IMG/VR virus record: IMGVR_UViG_2718218304_000001
Location: 50,160 to 114,159 of that record
From: a virus
Lineage: Duplodnaviria; Heunggongvirae; Uroviricota; Caudoviricetes
Length of the DNA: 64,000 nt
Reading direction: 5' to 3' (one strand)
Shown here: piece by piece, positions 1,643 to 39,044 of the stretch
Position numbering within the stretch: the stretch's first letter is position 1
Layout of the letters: the number at the start of each line of letters is the position of its first letter
The notes under the pieces: generated by a model
What the model saw: only the letters and a program-made list of their open reading frames with translations
What the model was told of the DNA's origin: nothing
The model's database searches: none
Translations under genes and position numbers: made by a program

Positions 1643-1744
1643 GTTGGTTTCCTTAAAGTGGTTCATAAAATCGATTTTAAAGCGTCTGGGAAGGGGTTCT
1701 AGTGGATTCTGTAGTGGTGTTCAGGTCTGGGAGTCTCTGATATA

Positions 1745-1810
1745 AAACAGCCTGCTTCCGTATATTAATAATTAATATGTAGTTATTTATATATACAGAA
1801 GCAGGCTAAT
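1745..1810. repeat. ~60-bp palindromic element, copy 1 (arms CCTGCTTCCGTATAT / ATATACAGAAGCAGG around an AT-rich loop)
   Basis: Read directly; the same arms, including the same single C/A mismatch, recur at about 54240-54300. Confidence 0.6.
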
Positions 1811-1828
1811 TACAGACGCCAGAACAAA

Positions 1829-2422
1829 CTAAGCAGCCTTCTTTGATTGTCTTTTTTTCCTGATCACATTCGCAGGATCATACCCTCCCAGACTTTTCAT
1901 GACGTCCAAAGGGATCTTGCTTATAGAGTGCCCAGCGTCCTGACAGAATCCTCGAAAAACAACGAGCATACTGCCACCTGGGTTGATGTTTACTTCTACC
2001 TGACCCAGATTTACGTCAGGCTCGACAAACGCTACGCGGCCACCAGACAGAATAATCGTCTCATTCGCACACTCTGTTGCACGCTCATACCACTTTGTAT
2101 CTAGGGATTGAGGAATTAGCATCACTGTTGTAACTCCGCGAGCCTGCTCACGTATAGCCGCATCAATCCAGGGGTAGATTTTGGAGTAGGGTGGATTGAG
2201 GAAGGCAATTGTACCTGGCTGTCCCCATTCAGATTTCAAAGCATCACGCTCAACGCCTATGAAATTAGGCAGCTTTGCATTGTCCTTGTTGCAGGCAACG
2301 TCAACATCAAATGTCACTCCAAGATAACGTTGAATGGCAGAAAACAGCCAGTCAGGTGTTCTCCAGAGGTCACGAAGAGAGTTGTCACGCTTTCGCTGTT
2401 TGATTTTTTCGGCTGCAATCAT
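1829..2422 (-). CDS. phage-type DNA N6-adenine methyltransferase (Dam-like)
   Basis: NPPY motif (FLNPPYS) and overall resemblance to phage Dam family MTases (T1 Dam-like); 197 aa. Confidence 0.65.
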   Translation of the reverse strand: MIAAEKIKQRKRDNSLRDLWRTPDWLFSAIQRYLGVTFDVDVACNKDNAKLPNFIGVERDALKSEWGQPGTIAFLNPPYSKIYPWIDAAIREQARGVTTVMLIPQSLDTKWYERATECANETIILSGGRVAFVEPDVNLGQVEVNINPGGSMLVVFRGFCQDAGHSISKIPLDVMKSLGGYDPANVIRKKRQSKKAA

Positions 2423-2488
2423 CTTCTTTCTCGATAGGTAAGTAAATACCTATTTTTGCATTTGATTTTATGTCTGGCAATCAAATAA

Positions 2489-2531
2489 AACGCGCCAGAA
2501 ATGCAAACGAGAAGCTCTCTGGCGCGTTTTT
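2489..2531. terminator. candidate bidirectional rho-independent terminator
   Basis: Inverted repeat CGCGCCAGA...TCTGGCGCG flanked by A-run upstream and T-run downstream, just beyond the stop of the 2606..3415 minus-strand gene. Confidence 0.4.
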
Positions 2532-8375: not shown

Positions 8376-9518
8376 TTACAGGTCTGCAAACTGGCTTAGA
8401 GAAGCCTTATCCACGGTAGAATCGATCTGACCTACCAGATATGTGCTTTGCTCTGCCTCTTGTGGCGCAATTTGCAGTGTGTCGGTTAACAACCACTTGT
8501 TCATCCAGACCAGCGGATCAGTGGTAACTTCTGGAAATAAAGCCTTCAGGCCAAGACGATTCATAGCCAGATTGGTGCGGTATTTTACATAGGTTTTGAG
8601 AATATCCGCGTTTAAACCAATCATCGAACCGTCTTTGAAGAGATAGTCTGCCCAGTTCATTTCTTGTTCGGCGACTGATTTCATGGTGTCGTAAATGACG
8701 TTTTCTTCATCAGCAGCAATCTCTTTCCACAATAAACCTTCGCGACCGGTACGCATGAAGCGGATCATGCGTTCAGTTCCTTCGCAATGCAGAGCTTCAT
8801 CACGGGCAATAAAGCGCATAATTTTGGTGTTACCCTCAAGCAACTTCCGTTCACCAAAGGCAAACGTACATGCAAAACTTACGTAGAAACGGATCGCCTC
8901 AAGCGCATTAATGGACACCAACGTGCGGAAAAGCTGACGATGCAAAGGGTATGGCTCCCAGCCATATTCATTTACGTACAGACGCTCAAATTCCTTCTCA
9001 CCTAACGACTGGCGCTCGCAGGTCATCCCATAAAGCCTGTCATATTCAGCAGAGATACTGATCGCTCGGTTGATGATTTCTTCATCCGTAACAATACCGT
9101 CAAAAACAATGCTCGGATCGTCCACCATGCCACGAATAATGTGGGTGTAGCTGCGGCTATGGATAGTCTCAGAGAAAGACCACGTTTCAACCCACGTTTC
9201 CAGTTCAGGAATAGAGATAAGCGGCAGAAGCGTTGCATTTGGGCTACGTCCCTGAACTGAATCGAGTAACGTTTGATAACGGAGATTGCTCAGAAAAATG
9301 TGACGTTCGTGGTCCCGCAGCTTCGTGTTGAAGTCGATACGATCACTCGAAATATCAACTTCTTCCGGCCGCCAGAAGAAAGACAATTGACGTTCAATCA
9401 ACTTTTCAAAATCACGGTATTTTTGCTGATCGTAACGTGCCACGTTGACAGATTGTCCGAGGAACATAGGCTCTTTGGTTGCATCATTAGCACCCAAACG
9501 GAACGTTGAATATGACAT
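8376..9518 (-). CDS. nrdB: ribonucleotide reductase class Ia beta subunit
   Basis: 380 aa; diiron/tyrosyl-radical region and overall NrdB-like sequence; adjacent to nrdA. Confidence 0.9.
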
Positions 9519-17456: not shown

Positions 17457-17654
17457 ATGTCATTTTTCTGTGATTGTTAGCCGAGGCAACGATAACCCAC
17501 CAGGTGCGCCGAAGGTAGTAAATGCCTGTTTTAATTATTCACATATCCACAGGATAGATCCTAATAAAGAGATCCATAGATAGATCCTTGTATAGATCAA
17601 ATAAGATCCCCGATCGCTGTAAGCCGCGCCACGACTGGTCTGAAGCCATGTTCA

Positions 17655-17760
17655 TGTATGCTGTCAGCGGTAATTGATAGTCTGTCAGCGGTTCACCGTA
17701 TGCTGCCAACTGTTTTTGGTATTCTGTCAGCGGCAAATCAAGTATGCTGTCAGCGGTTGA
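17655..17760. repeat. iteron array (5 copies, ~21-bp phasing) upstream of repA; candidate origin
   Basis: Repeats of (G)TATGCTGTCAGCGGT and variants at about 17657, 17678, 17699, 17722, 17743. Confidence 0.8.
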
Positions 17761-17777: not shown

Positions 17778-18872
17778 ATGTCCACAAAAAATAAAAAAGG
17801 TAAAAATAACAAAGAAGTAGAAGATAATCTCGACAACTTTGAAGAAGGTTCCCTTGAATTGTACACAGGGGAACTTGTCCCTAATAGCAACAATACAGTC
17901 CAACCAATTGCGTTGATGCGGCTGGGATTGTTCGTGCCCACGCTCAAGGGGACAAAATACAGCAAGCGTAACAAGCCAAATGAGATCGATGCTTCAAAGG
18001 AGCTTGTCCAGCTCGAAGTAGCCCGTTCTGAAGGCTATTCCGATATCAAGATAACCGGTCCTCGTCTCGACATGGATCATGATTTCAAAACGTGGGTGGG
18101 CGTTGTGCGTTCGCTGGCAGAATACGGCGAACCTAATGGTCGTGTCGAGTTAAGCATCACGAAATTTGCGAAGTTTTGTGGCTATCCATCGTCACAGATC
18201 CGCAAAACACTCCGCGACCGGCTTACAAACAGTCTTTTGAAGATCATGCGTACAACTCTGTCTTTCCAGAGAACGTATGAAGAAAAGAACGTCGACGGCT
18301 CTAACAAGATCTCGCTTCTGATGGTGCACCTCATCAATAGCGTGGACTACAACGAGCAGAAAGATACGGTGGTGTTCTATGCAGAACCGAAGCTGGCCGA
18401 ACTATATCGCTTTGACCATAAGGTTCTTTTGCAGTTAAAGGTTATCAATAAGCTACCACGCAAAGAAACAGCACAGGCTCTGTACACCTTCATCGAAAGT
18501 CTTCCAACCAAGCCTGCGCCGGTATCGCTTGCTCGATTGCGTGCGCGACTCAATTTGAGTAGCAGGAATGTCAGCTCGCAGAATCAGACTATACGTAACG
18601 GCTTAAAAGCTCTCCAAGATTTGGGCTATCTCGAATACAGCGAGATTAAGCGTGGGCGGTCGATCTATATCCAGATTCACAGCCGCAATCCAAAACTTAA
18701 AGTCGCACCGCCAAAACCTGAAGACATCGAACCCAAAAAACCAGATGAGAAAGCCGGGGAAATTGATGCTAAACAGAACATTATCAACAAGATAACTGAA
18801 CTTTCGCAGAATTTGACGCCTGAAAATATCAAGATGATTGAGATCCTTTCCAATAGTCTCAAACTGCTTTGA
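17778..18872 (+). CDS. repA: plasmid-type replication initiator (RepA-like, iteron-binding)
   Basis: Track ORF 17658..18872 overlaps the iterons; ATG at 17778 (MSTKNKKGK...) is the likely start; gene is bracketed by iteron arrays as in P1-type replicons. Confidence 0.65.
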   Translation: MSTKNKKGKNNKEVEDNLDNFEEGSLELYTGELVPNSNNTVQPIALMRLGLFVPTLKGTKYSKRNKPNEIDASKELVQLEVARSEGYSDIKITGPRLDMDHDFKTWVGVVRSLAEYGEPNGRVELSITKFAKFCGYPSSQIRKTLRDRLTNSLLKIMRTTLSFQRTYEEKNVDGSNKISLLMVHLINSVDYNEQKDTVVFYAEPKLAELYRFDHKVLLQLKVINKLPRKETAQALYTFIESLPTKPAPVSLARLRARLNLSSRNVSSQNQTIRNGLKALQDLGYLEYSEIKRGRSIYIQIHSRNPKLKVAPPKPEDIEPKKPDEKAGEIDAKQNIINKITELSQNLTPENIKMIEILSNSLKLL

Positions 18873-19405
18873 TATGCTGTCAGCGGTGAAATGTATGCTA
18901 TCAGCGGCTATTTTTCTGAAAAGTATGCTGTGAACGGTTAAAGATATGCTACCAGCGGTATAGTGAGATGAACGTATGCTGTGGGCGGTAAATCATCTAT
19001 CACCACTCAATGCTCTTTTATACCTCCCCAGTGGTTACTAACCTCGAAGAGTGCATTCCATATAGGTTTGCGCTCACTAACATTCTATTCCCATTGCGCT
19101 GATTGCTTGTAGTGAAAGGCATTTATTGCCTGCTGCTCCCTGATAGAACGTATGCTGTCAGCGGTGTTTTATTGAGGAATTTTTGTTTGGATATGCTATC
19201 AGCGGTAATTAATGGTATATGTCAGACCTTCGTATGCTGCCAGCGGTAATTTTGTTCTGGTTATACCCATACCGGTACACATTATTCATGCAATGTCTTA
19301 AGTATGCTGTCAGCGGTAAAAAATCGAGTAAAGTATGCTGTGAGCGGTGAGATAGACTCTCGATATGCTATCAGCGGTAGTTGATTGTGTATGCTGTTAG
19401 CGGTG
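18872..19405. repeat. second iteron array (about 12 copies, irregular spacing) downstream of repA; candidate copy-control locus
   Basis: Same TATGCT(G/A)TCAGCGGT core at about 18874, 18895, 18923, 18944, 18974, 19150, 19192, 19232, 19302, 19332, 19364, 19388. Confidence 0.8.
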
Positions 19406-19451
19406 ACGACTATGAAATATGACTGCGGCACGTTCCGCAGTCAGTTTGCAT

Positions 19452-27344: not shown

Positions 27345-27673
27345 TGATGCCCGCCAATTGGCGGGCATCTGTTCTCTGTAAAGGTGTCTGGCATCGTCTG
27401 GTTCGTTAACGTTTACTAAACCAATGGTGACAAAAATTAGTTATCTTTGAAAAATAAAGGTTGCATGAAAAGAAGGGGTATGCGTTAATAGCATCGTTGG
27501 TTTGCAAGACAGACCTTATGTAAGCAGTTTTAGTAAAGCAGTCTCAGTTCAGTGTTATCTTCTGATTTCCCTTCTTCGTGAGTCTCCTCCTTAAGTGCCT
27601 AAGTAAGTCCCAATCTATACAGATCAAATTCTCGCCGCACTATGTGGCTCACAAAATTAAGAAGGTAATATCT

Positions 27674-27889
27674 ATGTCTAATAAAATGACTGGTTTAGTA
27701 AAATGGTTTAACTCTGATAAAGGCTTTGGCTTTATTTCTCCTGCTGATGGCAGTAAAGATGTTTTTGTACATTTTTCGGCAATTCAGAGTAATAATTTCC
27801 GCACTTTGGAAGAAGGCCAGCAGGTCGAATTCTCTATCGAGAATGGGGCTAAAGGCCCAGCAGCAGCAAATGTCGTTGCTCTAAGCTGA
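27674..27889 (+). CDS. cold-shock protein (CspA family)
   Basis: [23 protein letters not shown]...[12 protein letters not shown]1/RNP2 motifs of the CspA family; ~71 aa; long 5' leader upstream. Confidence 0.85.
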
Positions 27890-28168
27890 TTCAACGCTGA
27901 TGATCCTCATTTCTACAATAACGAAGACGGTGTAAGCCTGAGTGGATAGATTTGTAGGATTGTACAAGTTGAATAAATTAGCATGGTAAGGCCATGCTAA
28001 TTAAATCGACACAACGGCCAGTTTATTCCATAAAAGTGAATTGCCCATTGTGGCGAAATGCGGGGTTGCCGCATGAATAGTCAAAGGCAGAAGCTAACTG
28101 CCGGCATGGCAAAACAAAGTGCGTAAGAGGAGTGACTTCCTCAACAAGCGCCATAATTCTTTATAAAC

Positions 28169-38797: not shown

Positions 38798-38874
38798 TGG
38801 TGCCGGTTAACGGGATCGAACCGCTGACATCCTGCTTACAAGGCAGACGCTCTACCAACTGAGCTAAACCGGCA
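38798..38874 (-). tRNA. tRNA-Thr (anticodon TGT)
   Basis: Hand-folded: acceptor GCCGGTT/AACCGGC, D-arm GCTC-AGTTGGTA-GAGC, anticodon loop CTTGTAA, T-loop TTCGATC, CCA. Confidence 0.8.
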
Positions 38875-38877
38875 ATT

Positions 38878-38964
38878 TGGTGGGGAGTGATGGAGTCGAA
38901 CCACCCGAGTCGCAATGACAGTAGATTTACAGTCTACCCCGCTGCCCCTACGGACTAACTCCCC
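38878..38964 (-). tRNA. tRNA-Tyr (anticodon GTA), long variable arm
   Basis: Hand-folded: acceptor GGGGAGT/ACTCCCC, anticodon arm GTAGA-CTGTAAA-TCTAC, T-loop TTCGACT, CCA; D-arm pairing less clear. Confidence 0.7.
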
Positions 38965-38969
38965 TAAAT

Positions 38970-39044
38970 TGGCGATGGTGGGTGGATTCGAACCACCGAC
39001 CAGTTGGTTAACAGCCAACTGCTCTACCGCTGAGCTACACCATC
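38970..39044 (-). tRNA. tRNA-Asn (anticodon GTT)
   Basis: Hand-folded: acceptor GATGGTG/CACCATC, D-arm GCTC-AGCGGTA-GAGC, anticodon arm GTTGG-CTGTTAA-CCAAC, T-arm GGTGG-TTCGAAT-CCACC, CCA. Confidence 0.85.

Follow-up and report, generated by a model that had tools for sequence, protein, structure and literature searches.

Rho-independent terminators of Enterobacteria consist of a hairpin with a GC-rich base that is directly followed by a U-tract; such a terminator follows a stop codon or closes an operon and acts on one strand. In Escherichia coli the stems average 7 to 8 bp (PMC10325885). In the Bacillus plasmid pLS20, the terminator TerR has a stem of more than 14 bp and resists processive antitermination, a property that is independent of sequence (PMC10325885). 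Here, we analyzed a 64,000-nt stretch of DNA (hereafter the window; positions 50,160 to 114,159 of IMG/VR record IMGVR_UViG_2718218304_000001) from an E. coli SSU5-like phage-plasmid, in which a 55-bp palindrome occurs at two distant intergenic sites, c1 and c2; relatives carry a third copy, c3, outside the window. Both window copies resemble the enterobacterial terminators in their GC-rich hairpin base, their direct U-tract, their position behind a stop codon or where an operon ends, and their restriction to one strand. Unlike those terminators, however, the SSU5-type stem measures about 24 bp (18 + 6) and is AU-rich in its upper half, one sequence occupies three sites and is kept across genera, the flanking inverted motifs are conserved, and the c3 member has no U-tract. 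Compared with TerR, the SSU5-type stem is longer still, shares the GC-rich base and AT-rich middle, and likewise closes a transcription unit of a mobile element whose operons are long and co-directional. TerR belongs to another host phylum, has no sequence relation to the SSU5-type hairpin and is a single site, whereas the SSU5-type hairpin is a conserved multicopy family, to which resistance to antitermination could be extended by analogy only; no antitermination system was identified in SSU5-like elements in this analysis.

Based on the evidence below, the palindrome probably represents a three-copy family of long-stem, factor-independent terminators at the borders between the gene modules of SSU5-like phage-plasmids. 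As such it would be no new kind of element but an unusually long and conserved intrinsic terminator, and our literature search turned up no description of it. The two window copies and their T-tracts are as follows.

1751..1805, minus strand: c1, 55-bp palindrome core, with the stem extending 2 bp to 1749-1807.
1740..1750, minus strand: c1 T-tract CUGUUUUAUAU, directly 3' of the hairpin and conserved at c1 orthologues.
54239..54293, minus strand: c2, 55-bp palindrome core, within 141 nt at 100% identity to CP053388.1.
54229..54238, minus strand: c2 T-tract UCUUUUAAAA, conserved at c2 orthologues.

On the plus strand, c1 reads CCTGCTTCCGTATAT, 25 nt and ATATACAGAAGCAGG, and c2 has identical 15-nt arms around a different but related AT-rich center; on the minus strand, which is the gene-sense strand, the element reads CCUGCUUCUGUAUAU...AUAUACGGAAGCAGG. 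A repeat finder grouped c1 and c2 as a two-copy direct family of 56 nt with 82% identity. Throughout the 64 kb, the arm with 0 to 1 mismatch occurs at only four places, which are the arms of the two sites, so the duplicated palindrome reported in the initial annotation was recovered by this search; at up to 3 mismatches there were 5 matches against 1.34 expected, the fifth (at 2143) being noise. The AT-rich loop that had been described between the arms is present as an AT-rich center, but the 25 nt are largely self-complementary, so that the whole 55 bp form a near-perfect palindrome. The same C-opposite-A position was indeed found in both copies on the plus strand, and it becomes a U.G wobble in the sense-strand RNA. 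It had been taken as a sign of copying; the position is polymorphic, however, with arm position 9 cycling through C-G, U.G, U-A and C.A, and it is therefore not diagnostic.

The sense RNA folds into an uninterrupted 18-bp lower stem, a small A-rich internal loop, an upper stem of 5 to 7 bp and an apical loop of 3 to 5 nt, which exceeds the usual terminator dimensions (stem about 5 to 14 bp, loop 3 to 8 nt). The base of the stem is GC-rich (CCUGCUUC/GGAAGCAGG) and the upper part AU-rich. The folding energies of the minus-strand RNA were -29.6 kcal/mol for c1 (z = -6.7) and -30.2 kcal/mol for c2 (z = -8.0), and none of 200 shuffled sequences folded as stably as these sense-strand hairpins, while the plus-strand folds were weaker (-27.0 and -23.7 kcal/mol, respectively). 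A scan of the whole window against Rfam 15 at gathering thresholds assigned no family to either site.

The genes next to the two sites give the hairpins their orientation.

1829..2422, minus strand: Dam-type adenine methyltransferase gene, whose transcript c1 would end.
53397..54131, minus strand: 244-aa open reading frame (ORF) without a Pfam match, which heads the helicase/primase operon (DnaB-like helicase, primase) that c2 is proposed to insulate.
54405..55172, plus strand: GIY-YIG (LEM-3-like) gene (domain match, E = 5.5e-7) in a hypervariable slot on the sense-upstream side of c2.

As previously placed, c1 lies between the Dam-like gene and the next gene start, 23 nt past the Dam stop codon and upstream of a small conserved minus-strand ORF (ATG at 1639-1641), and c2 lies between the 244-aa ORF on the minus strand and the GIY-YIG ORF on the plus strand. 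The gene preceding c2 in relatives is the last one of the parA operon or of an accessory slot; in the window c2 instead faces the convergent GIY-YIG gene, which runs counter to the rest of the genome and is followed by a terminator of its own (55190-55218, plus strand). The same upstream context with GIY-YIG was found in 23 of 78 related contigs (about 30%).

Both c1 and c2 thus combine a stable GC-based hairpin, an immediate U-tract and a sense position at a transcription-unit end. The c1 hairpin is followed directly by (C)UGUUUUAU, and at both sites the T-tract occurs on the sense strand only. Among c1 orthologues there is a mean of 4.4 T in the 8 nt past the hairpin, usually as a run of 4 to 5; c2 orthologues have a mean of 5.3 T, with a run of 4 to 6 in 35 of 40 unique sequences. 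In a purpose-made scan for a hairpin plus T-tract, c1 and c2 were among the strongest candidates in the window, and the same scan returned ordinary short terminators at other junctions, for example, at 2488-2529 (minus strand) upstream of Dam and at 55190-55218. It is also informative to see what stands at c1 where the palindrome is lost. Ten divergent c1 loci (Dam 69 to 72% identical) have lost the left arm and retain a remnant of the right arm, directly after which they carry a canonical terminator, AGAGATTCAGGCAC-TTAC-GTGCCTTAATCTCT, followed by GTTTTT; this looks like a functional replacement.

Transcription data are available for Cyrano, the re-annotated plasmid pLF82, as per-gene RNA sequencing values (PMC9928086, S1 Table; log2 of fragments per kilobase per million plus 5, floor 2.32, ten samples). 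The genes upstream of c2 were well expressed, with 5.2 to 10.1 for parA, 6.3 to 10.8 for CYRAN_29 and 5.7 to 10.4 for CYRAN_30, and CYRAN_31, the orthologue of the 244-aa ORF, which begins 193 nt further on across c2, was at 2.3 to 4.2 (PMC9928086). The RNA level therefore drops roughly 50-fold or more across c2. We infer that transcripts terminate at the c2 hairpin, which would account for the drop, that the same holds for c1 and that the stem is long in order to make a strong insulator.

The comparison with relatives further showed that the palindrome belongs to a fixed family. The window is 98 to 99% identical to CMS-2020a (CP053388.1), Cyrano (OV696614.1) and PhiR41_1, and about 77% identical to Salmonella phage SSU5 and its Klebsiella relatives; in these records, nearly all genes lie on the strand that corresponds to the window minus strand. 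Whole-genome scans of Cyrano, SSU5 and Klebsiella pJN2-26 each gave exactly three copies in the same orientation: c1 after Dam, c2 before the 244-aa/helicase/primase operon and c3 between a small DNA-binding-domain gene and terS. A pattern scan of IMG/VR found 119 elements, 118 of which stood in these three contexts as judged by their flanks. Because that scan demanded a match to the arms, orthologous loci were re-collected through the flanking proteins (the 244-aa protein, Dam and TerS), and among the usable loci the palindrome was present at 78 of 78 c2, 73 of 73 c3 and 68 of 78 c1 loci. In GTDB, with one genome per species, it occurred only on SSU5-like contigs of Kluyvera, Buttiauxella and Yersinia pestis, and in two metagenome bins. 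The family is thus conserved across the SSU5-like elements of E. coli, Salmonella, Klebsiella, Kluyvera, Buttiauxella and Yersinia, with the arms kept at orthologous sites, and c1 and c2 go back to one element and did not evolve separately as hairpins. In this respect the initial annotation was right to see a copied element, now known as one family with three syntenic members that exchange sequence; its opposition between a copied element and terminators fails, because the copies have the features of terminators too.

Over longer distances, what persists is the hairpin. In the SSU5 group the arms hardly vary, with 96% of arm cells paired, so that counting covariation is nearly uninformative there and compensatory evidence was taken from distant relatives. 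The c1 arms of the Xenorhabdus type (GCCTTGCTCCCATA...TATGGGAGCAAGGC) and of Morganella (GCCGTGTTCCCATA...TATCGGAGCACGGC) both show compensatory changes, and in the Raoultella-type c2 (CCTGCTCCCCAT...ATGGGAAGCAGG) three consecutive pairs are altered on both sides. The Morganella c2 has been rebuilt from the same arm sequence into a short hairpin (ATGGGAGCA, 12 nt, TGCTCCCAT) followed by TTCTTTC. Across 73 unique elements, there were 52 G.U cells, which are compatible with pairing in the sense strand, against 16 A.C cells, and at c2 the ratio was 35 to 2. In the Xenorhabdus-type genome, two scans for other copies by arm pattern gave only c1 or unrelated matches, and a BLAST search of its c1 locus against plasmid and phage collections returned no complete record; its other copies were reached through protein look-ups. 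Among the distant relatives, the Raoultella-type c3 and the Morganella c2 are also seen rearranged, as right arm, spacer and left arm or as two decayed tandem copies.

The paralogous copies exchange sequence as well. Among 19 genomes with all three copies, c2 equals c3 exactly in 2, and in a third genome c1 has a center of the c2/c3 type while its flanks are still of the c1 type, which is a short gene conversion tract. Moreover, a lineage's own arm sequence is common to its paralogues, namely c1 and c2 in Morganella and c1 and c3 in the Xenorhabdus type. Concerted evolution of the copies is therefore real, and it can explain identical arms without a factor that reads the sequence, although it would be compatible with such a factor.

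Taken together, the proposed mechanism would work on transcripts of the window minus strand. RNA polymerase would synthesize the ~24-bp hairpin with its GC-rich base and AU-rich upper part, meet the U-tract and release the RNA. At c1 this would end the Dam transcription unit, and at c2 it would keep transcription that comes from the parA/accessory region out of the replication operon (244-aa ORF, DnaB-like helicase and primase). The conserved ~90 to 110 nt after each hairpin would carry the promoter of the next unit, making the junction a terminator-promoter cassette, and the copies would resemble one another through shared ancestry, through purifying selection that acts on the stem and, from time to time, through gene conversion. 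By analogy with TerR, the insulator may resist processive antitermination, and strong, possibly antitermination-proof insulation seems the most economical functional reading.

Such insulation would matter for these elements. SSU5-like phage-plasmids, among them pHCM2, pLF82/Cyrano, pECOH89 and many elements of Klebsiella, Salmonella and Yersinia, are frequently found in clinical Enterobacterales, and hardly any work has addressed how they are regulated. Since nearly all of their ~120 genes are co-directional, genes of the plasmid state (parA, toxin-antitoxin pairs) need insulation from the replication and late genes, and a shared, very strong border terminator would give a concrete and testable account of it. 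Across 78 c2 loci, the upstream flanks fall into 22 sequence clusters, a hypervariable cargo slot, and the downstream flanks into only 6; the slot upstream of c2 would be a place where accessory cargo can insert without disturbing the insulation. If the long stem does give resistance to antitermination, this would extend a mechanism that has so far been shown only in a Bacillus plasmid. The element is also a landmark for annotation and typing and a frequent breakpoint of short-read assemblies.

The regions around the hairpins contain further conserved motifs.

1684..1733, minus strand: c1 3' flank with two YYCCCAGAC copies, on the plus strand GTCTGGGAG (1725-1733) and GTCTGGGAA (1684-1692).
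1813..1825, minus strand: c1 5' flank between the Dam stop and the hairpin, with a degenerate inverted motif copy, sense GUUCUGGCGUCUG.
54135..54228, minus strand: conserved spacer and promoter region from c2 to the 244-aa ORF, with GACACCACCAGAAC (54215-54228), CCCTTCCGTTTCCACTTCCAAAAA, CCACCAGTCGC and GATAAGTAAGTAACTACCTA.

The upstream flanks of the two copies, noted before to share a TGGTGT-containing stretch, do share GTGGTGT. At c1, CTCCCAGAC is repeated downstream as 2 to 4 direct copies about 20 nt apart. In Cyrano, 6 of the 10 CCCAGAC copies are no more than 300 nt away from the three sites, in reverse orientation upstream and in forward orientation downstream, and c2 upstream flanks that cannot be aligned usually keep TCTGG about 20 nt before the hairpin. 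The outer motifs of c1 pair in the minimum-energy fold of 1715-1830 (minus strand, -40.3 kcal/mol), and the outer helix GUCUGGGAG/CUCCCAGAC is present in the minimum-energy folds of the E. coli, SSU5 and Klebsiella c1 (-40 to -43 kcal/mol, z about -7), enclosing the terminator in a ~115-nt hairpin. The last downstream copy stands at -35 distance from TATGAA at c1, upstream of the next ORF, or from TATGAT at c2; part of the downstream array may therefore belong to the next promoter, as judged from the spacing of these sequences. A simple promoter scanner called no sigma-70 promoter adjoining c2.

Several observations weigh against the terminator family as a complete explanation. A T-tract is missing from the c3 orthologues (on average 2.9 T in the 8 nt, never in a run longer than 3), and therefore termination is not the sole constraint on the family. 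Inverted motifs flank the hairpins in most lineages (GTCTGGGAG upstream, CTCCCAGAC downstream), and Xenorhabdus and Morganella instead carry CCGCAGTG/CACTGCGG at c1 and c3; lineage-specific flank motifs that are common to paralogous sites are not needed by a plain terminator. Of the 10 arm pairs, 4 are the same throughout the SSU5 group and just 3 have changed in both partners; such near-invariant arms represent more sequence conservation than a hairpin alone requires. The G.U bias is absent at c1 (A.C 11 versus G.U 8). The RNA values were obtained per gene and do not map 3' ends, so that termination and processing with decay look the same in them; they come from a relative with a different c2 loop, and they are uninformative for c1 because Dam was at the floor. 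In addition, the simple terminator scanner called neither hairpin, because of the internal loop.

It is possible, although unlikely, that the palindrome and its flank motifs act primarily as double-stranded or cruciform DNA to which one of the element's own proteins binds, with termination at c1 and c2 being secondary. Candidates for such a site are an operator, an N15-like dispersed centromere, a pac or terminase-binding site (c3 lies near terS), and a lytic origin or programmed break site, the last of which would serve the T4-like recombination-dependent replication genes (SbcCD-like, UvsW, UvsY and RecA-like). This idea would fit c3, which is the best conserved copy (mean intergenome edit distance of 3.7, versus 6.8 for c1 and 7.4 for c2) in spite of lacking a T-tract, and which is also the most stable one (mean -25 kcal/mol). 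The near-invariance of the arms within the group, the confinement of the flank motif to the palindrome neighborhood in Cyrano, and the arms and motifs that are lineage specific yet common to paralogous sites, as is expected of sites coevolving with a binding protein, all point in the same direction, and the AT-rich center would favor cruciform extrusion. However, the orientation of the T-tracts, the G.U bias of c2 and the replacement of c1 by a canonical terminator indicate a strand-specific role at the RNA level, and the converted loop shows that gene conversion alone can keep the copies alike. No candidate binding protein was identified in this analysis, and the TerL is of the Terminase_6N/Terminase_3 type, which also speaks against a DNA site.

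The beginning of the linear SSU5 record inside c3, where the Cyrano record is opened as well, would also speak for a DNA site. Independent metagenome and isolate contigs (2 starts and 2 ends) break inside c2 or 35 to 40 nt before c1, so assemblies of SSU5-like elements recurrently break at the palindromes, and the Cyrano entry derives from a plasmid that was annotated anew; the record boundary at c3 is consequently weak evidence for physical DNA ends, and repeats that break assemblies give a simpler account of it. For these reasons, and because the circular PhiR41_1 record was opened at a gene start, a cos or pac role of c3, as a unique site near terS to which the ends of virion DNA would map, was set aside. 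A loxP-like recombination or telomere resolution site was ruled out by the 25-nt spacer, the three directly oriented copies and the circular replicon.

With respect to a centromere, repeats of the parS or sopC type are bound by the protein that partners ParA and usually adjoin the par operon; the dispersed sopC-like sites of N15 are short, perfect palindromes of about 16 bp that are bound by SopB. The SSU5-type sites resemble them as a few copies of one inverted repeat around a phage-plasmid, some of them in regulatory regions, but differ in arms that are 25 nt apart and in their strand-specific T-tracts. A better candidate for an operator or centromere is the separate palindrome AAACAANTTGTTT, which has 5 matches in the window against 0.57 expected (9550, 20988, 35339, 53356 and 56288). 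Of these copies, one falls on the parA promoter region and another separates the 244-aa ORF from the helicase gene; Cyrano has two further copies between c3 and terS. This palindrome is a candidate for an operator or centromere of the ParA partner, or for a late-gene regulator site. The distance from c2 to parA is about 0.9 kb, with a variable gene slot between them. Since c1 and c3 are far from parA, the T-tracts are strand specific and this different palindrome stands at the parA promoter, a centromere role of the hairpin family is unlikely.

The region of c3 was inspected in Cyrano, and SSU5 has the equivalent junction. After the stop codon of the small DNA-binding-domain gene come, in this order, GGTCTGGGAG, the palindrome, which lacks a T-tract here, CCCAGACC, a pair of AAACAAGTTG boxes, a small hairpin of G and C (GAGCGC..GCGCTC) with TGTGTGTTTT behind it, and the ribosome-binding site of terS. 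A small canonical terminator lies about 75 nt past c3, directly before terS, and such a promoter-proximal terminator suggests control of the late genes by antitermination.

A more elaborate scheme is conceivable, although we regard it as doubtful. The three hairpins and their lineage-specific flank motifs would be coordinated gates, read by a specialized protein of the element itself that binds RNA or DNA or acts as a nuclease. All module borders would then be opened, kept shut or cut together at the switch from plasmid maintenance to the lytic state, and c3, adjacent to terS and lacking a T-tract, would be an ancestral member that does not terminate, e.g., a pac or replication initiation site.

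An RNA processing or stability signal is improbable as the main function. In this case, ribonuclease III (RNase III) would cut the ~24-bp duplex (~115 nt with the outer helix), separate the mRNAs of the modules and leave protective 3' hairpins. The T7 RNase III sites (R0.3 to R18.5) are several related long hairpins with an internal loop between co-directional genes, much like the SSU5-type family, and they have no U-tracts and do not terminate transcription. The SSU5-type duplex is long enough for RNase III, and the A-rich internal loop within it is conserved. An outer helix is also part of the folds of c1 from E. coli, SSU5 and Klebsiella, a different outer inverted repeat taking its place in Xenorhabdus and Morganella. 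Under this model c3 would need no T-tract, and the drop in RNA per gene fits processing and decay as well as it fits termination. Unlike the T7 sites, however, c1 and c2 carry U-tracts, and their conservation, together with the canonical terminator that replaces c1, would be left unexplained, as would the invariant arms, because RNase III has little sequence specificity. Cleavage by RNase III, which is hypothetical here, would be compatible with the terminator family and could act together with it.

A small mobile or recombination cassette that spreads or shuffles neighboring genes, similar to miniature inverted-repeat transposable elements or repetitive extragenic palindromes, which occur in many copies at variable positions and are present or absent even among related genomes, or to the cassettes of T4-type phages, is very improbable. 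Arbiol, Comeau and Krisch in 2010 reportedly described such promoter-early stem-loop (PeSL) cassettes as numerous and flanking nearly every variable ORF. The likeness lies in a repeated unit of stem-loop and promoter at gene borders, and c2 adjoins a hypervariable slot, with 22 versus 6 flank clusters over the 78 loci; the palindrome is the edge of a conserved block, the copies exchange sequence, and the inverted outer motifs resemble terminal repeats. In contrast to the PeSL cassettes, there are only three fixed copies, and two of the three borders are not variable. The three copies are syntenic in every genome examined, with 118 of 119 IMG/VR matches in those contexts and GTDB matches on SSU5-like contigs only; the flanks of c1 and c3 are conserved on both sides, and no target site duplications were seen.

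That c1 and c2 are independent hairpins alike by chance can practically be dismissed, since the AT-rich, low-complexity center is all that favors it, and identical 15-nt arms at both sites and at a third site in relatives, where 1.34 chance matches are expected even at 3 mismatches, and the retention of the same sequence at orthologous sites across genera speak against it.

Apart from the terminator family, the window contains other repeated and structured elements. The palindrome ATARGTAnnTAnnTACYTAT has 10 matches against 0.06 expected, at 8 sites (two pairs overlap), found by a motif scan.

216, 2434, 11986, 16670, 20177, 39793, 43238 and 54135, plus-strand start positions: ATARGTAnnTAnnTACYTAT sites.

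These sites typically lie just upstream of minus-strand gene starts, such as those of Dam and of the 244-aa/helicase operon; before the latter, GATAAGTAAGTAACTACCTA occupies 54135-54154, just ahead of the ribosome-binding site of the 244-aa ORF. The motif is a candidate operator or promoter element of a regulon. Another repeat, CATGTGTTTTTCCTTTT, recurs at 9516, 16553, 20488, 25688, 31697, 33113 and 51899, and on the minus strand it is the translation start context AAAAGGAAAAACACATG common to seven gene starts. An iteron-like repeat, GTATGCTGTCAGCGGTAA, is present in at least 16 copies in two arrays (17650-17760 and 18868-19411), and the ~1.1-kb gap between the arrays matches the position of the RepA gene in Cyrano; these are presumably the plasmid replication origin and copy control iterons. 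A full-length match to the Rfam cspA thermoregulator (27496-27914, plus strand, 185.7 bits) indicates a cold shock protein gene with a long 5' untranslated region, on the strand opposite to most genes. Finally, three tandem tRNA genes at 38801-39044 (minus strand) correspond to tRNA-Asn, tRNA-Thr and tRNA-Ser of Cyrano.

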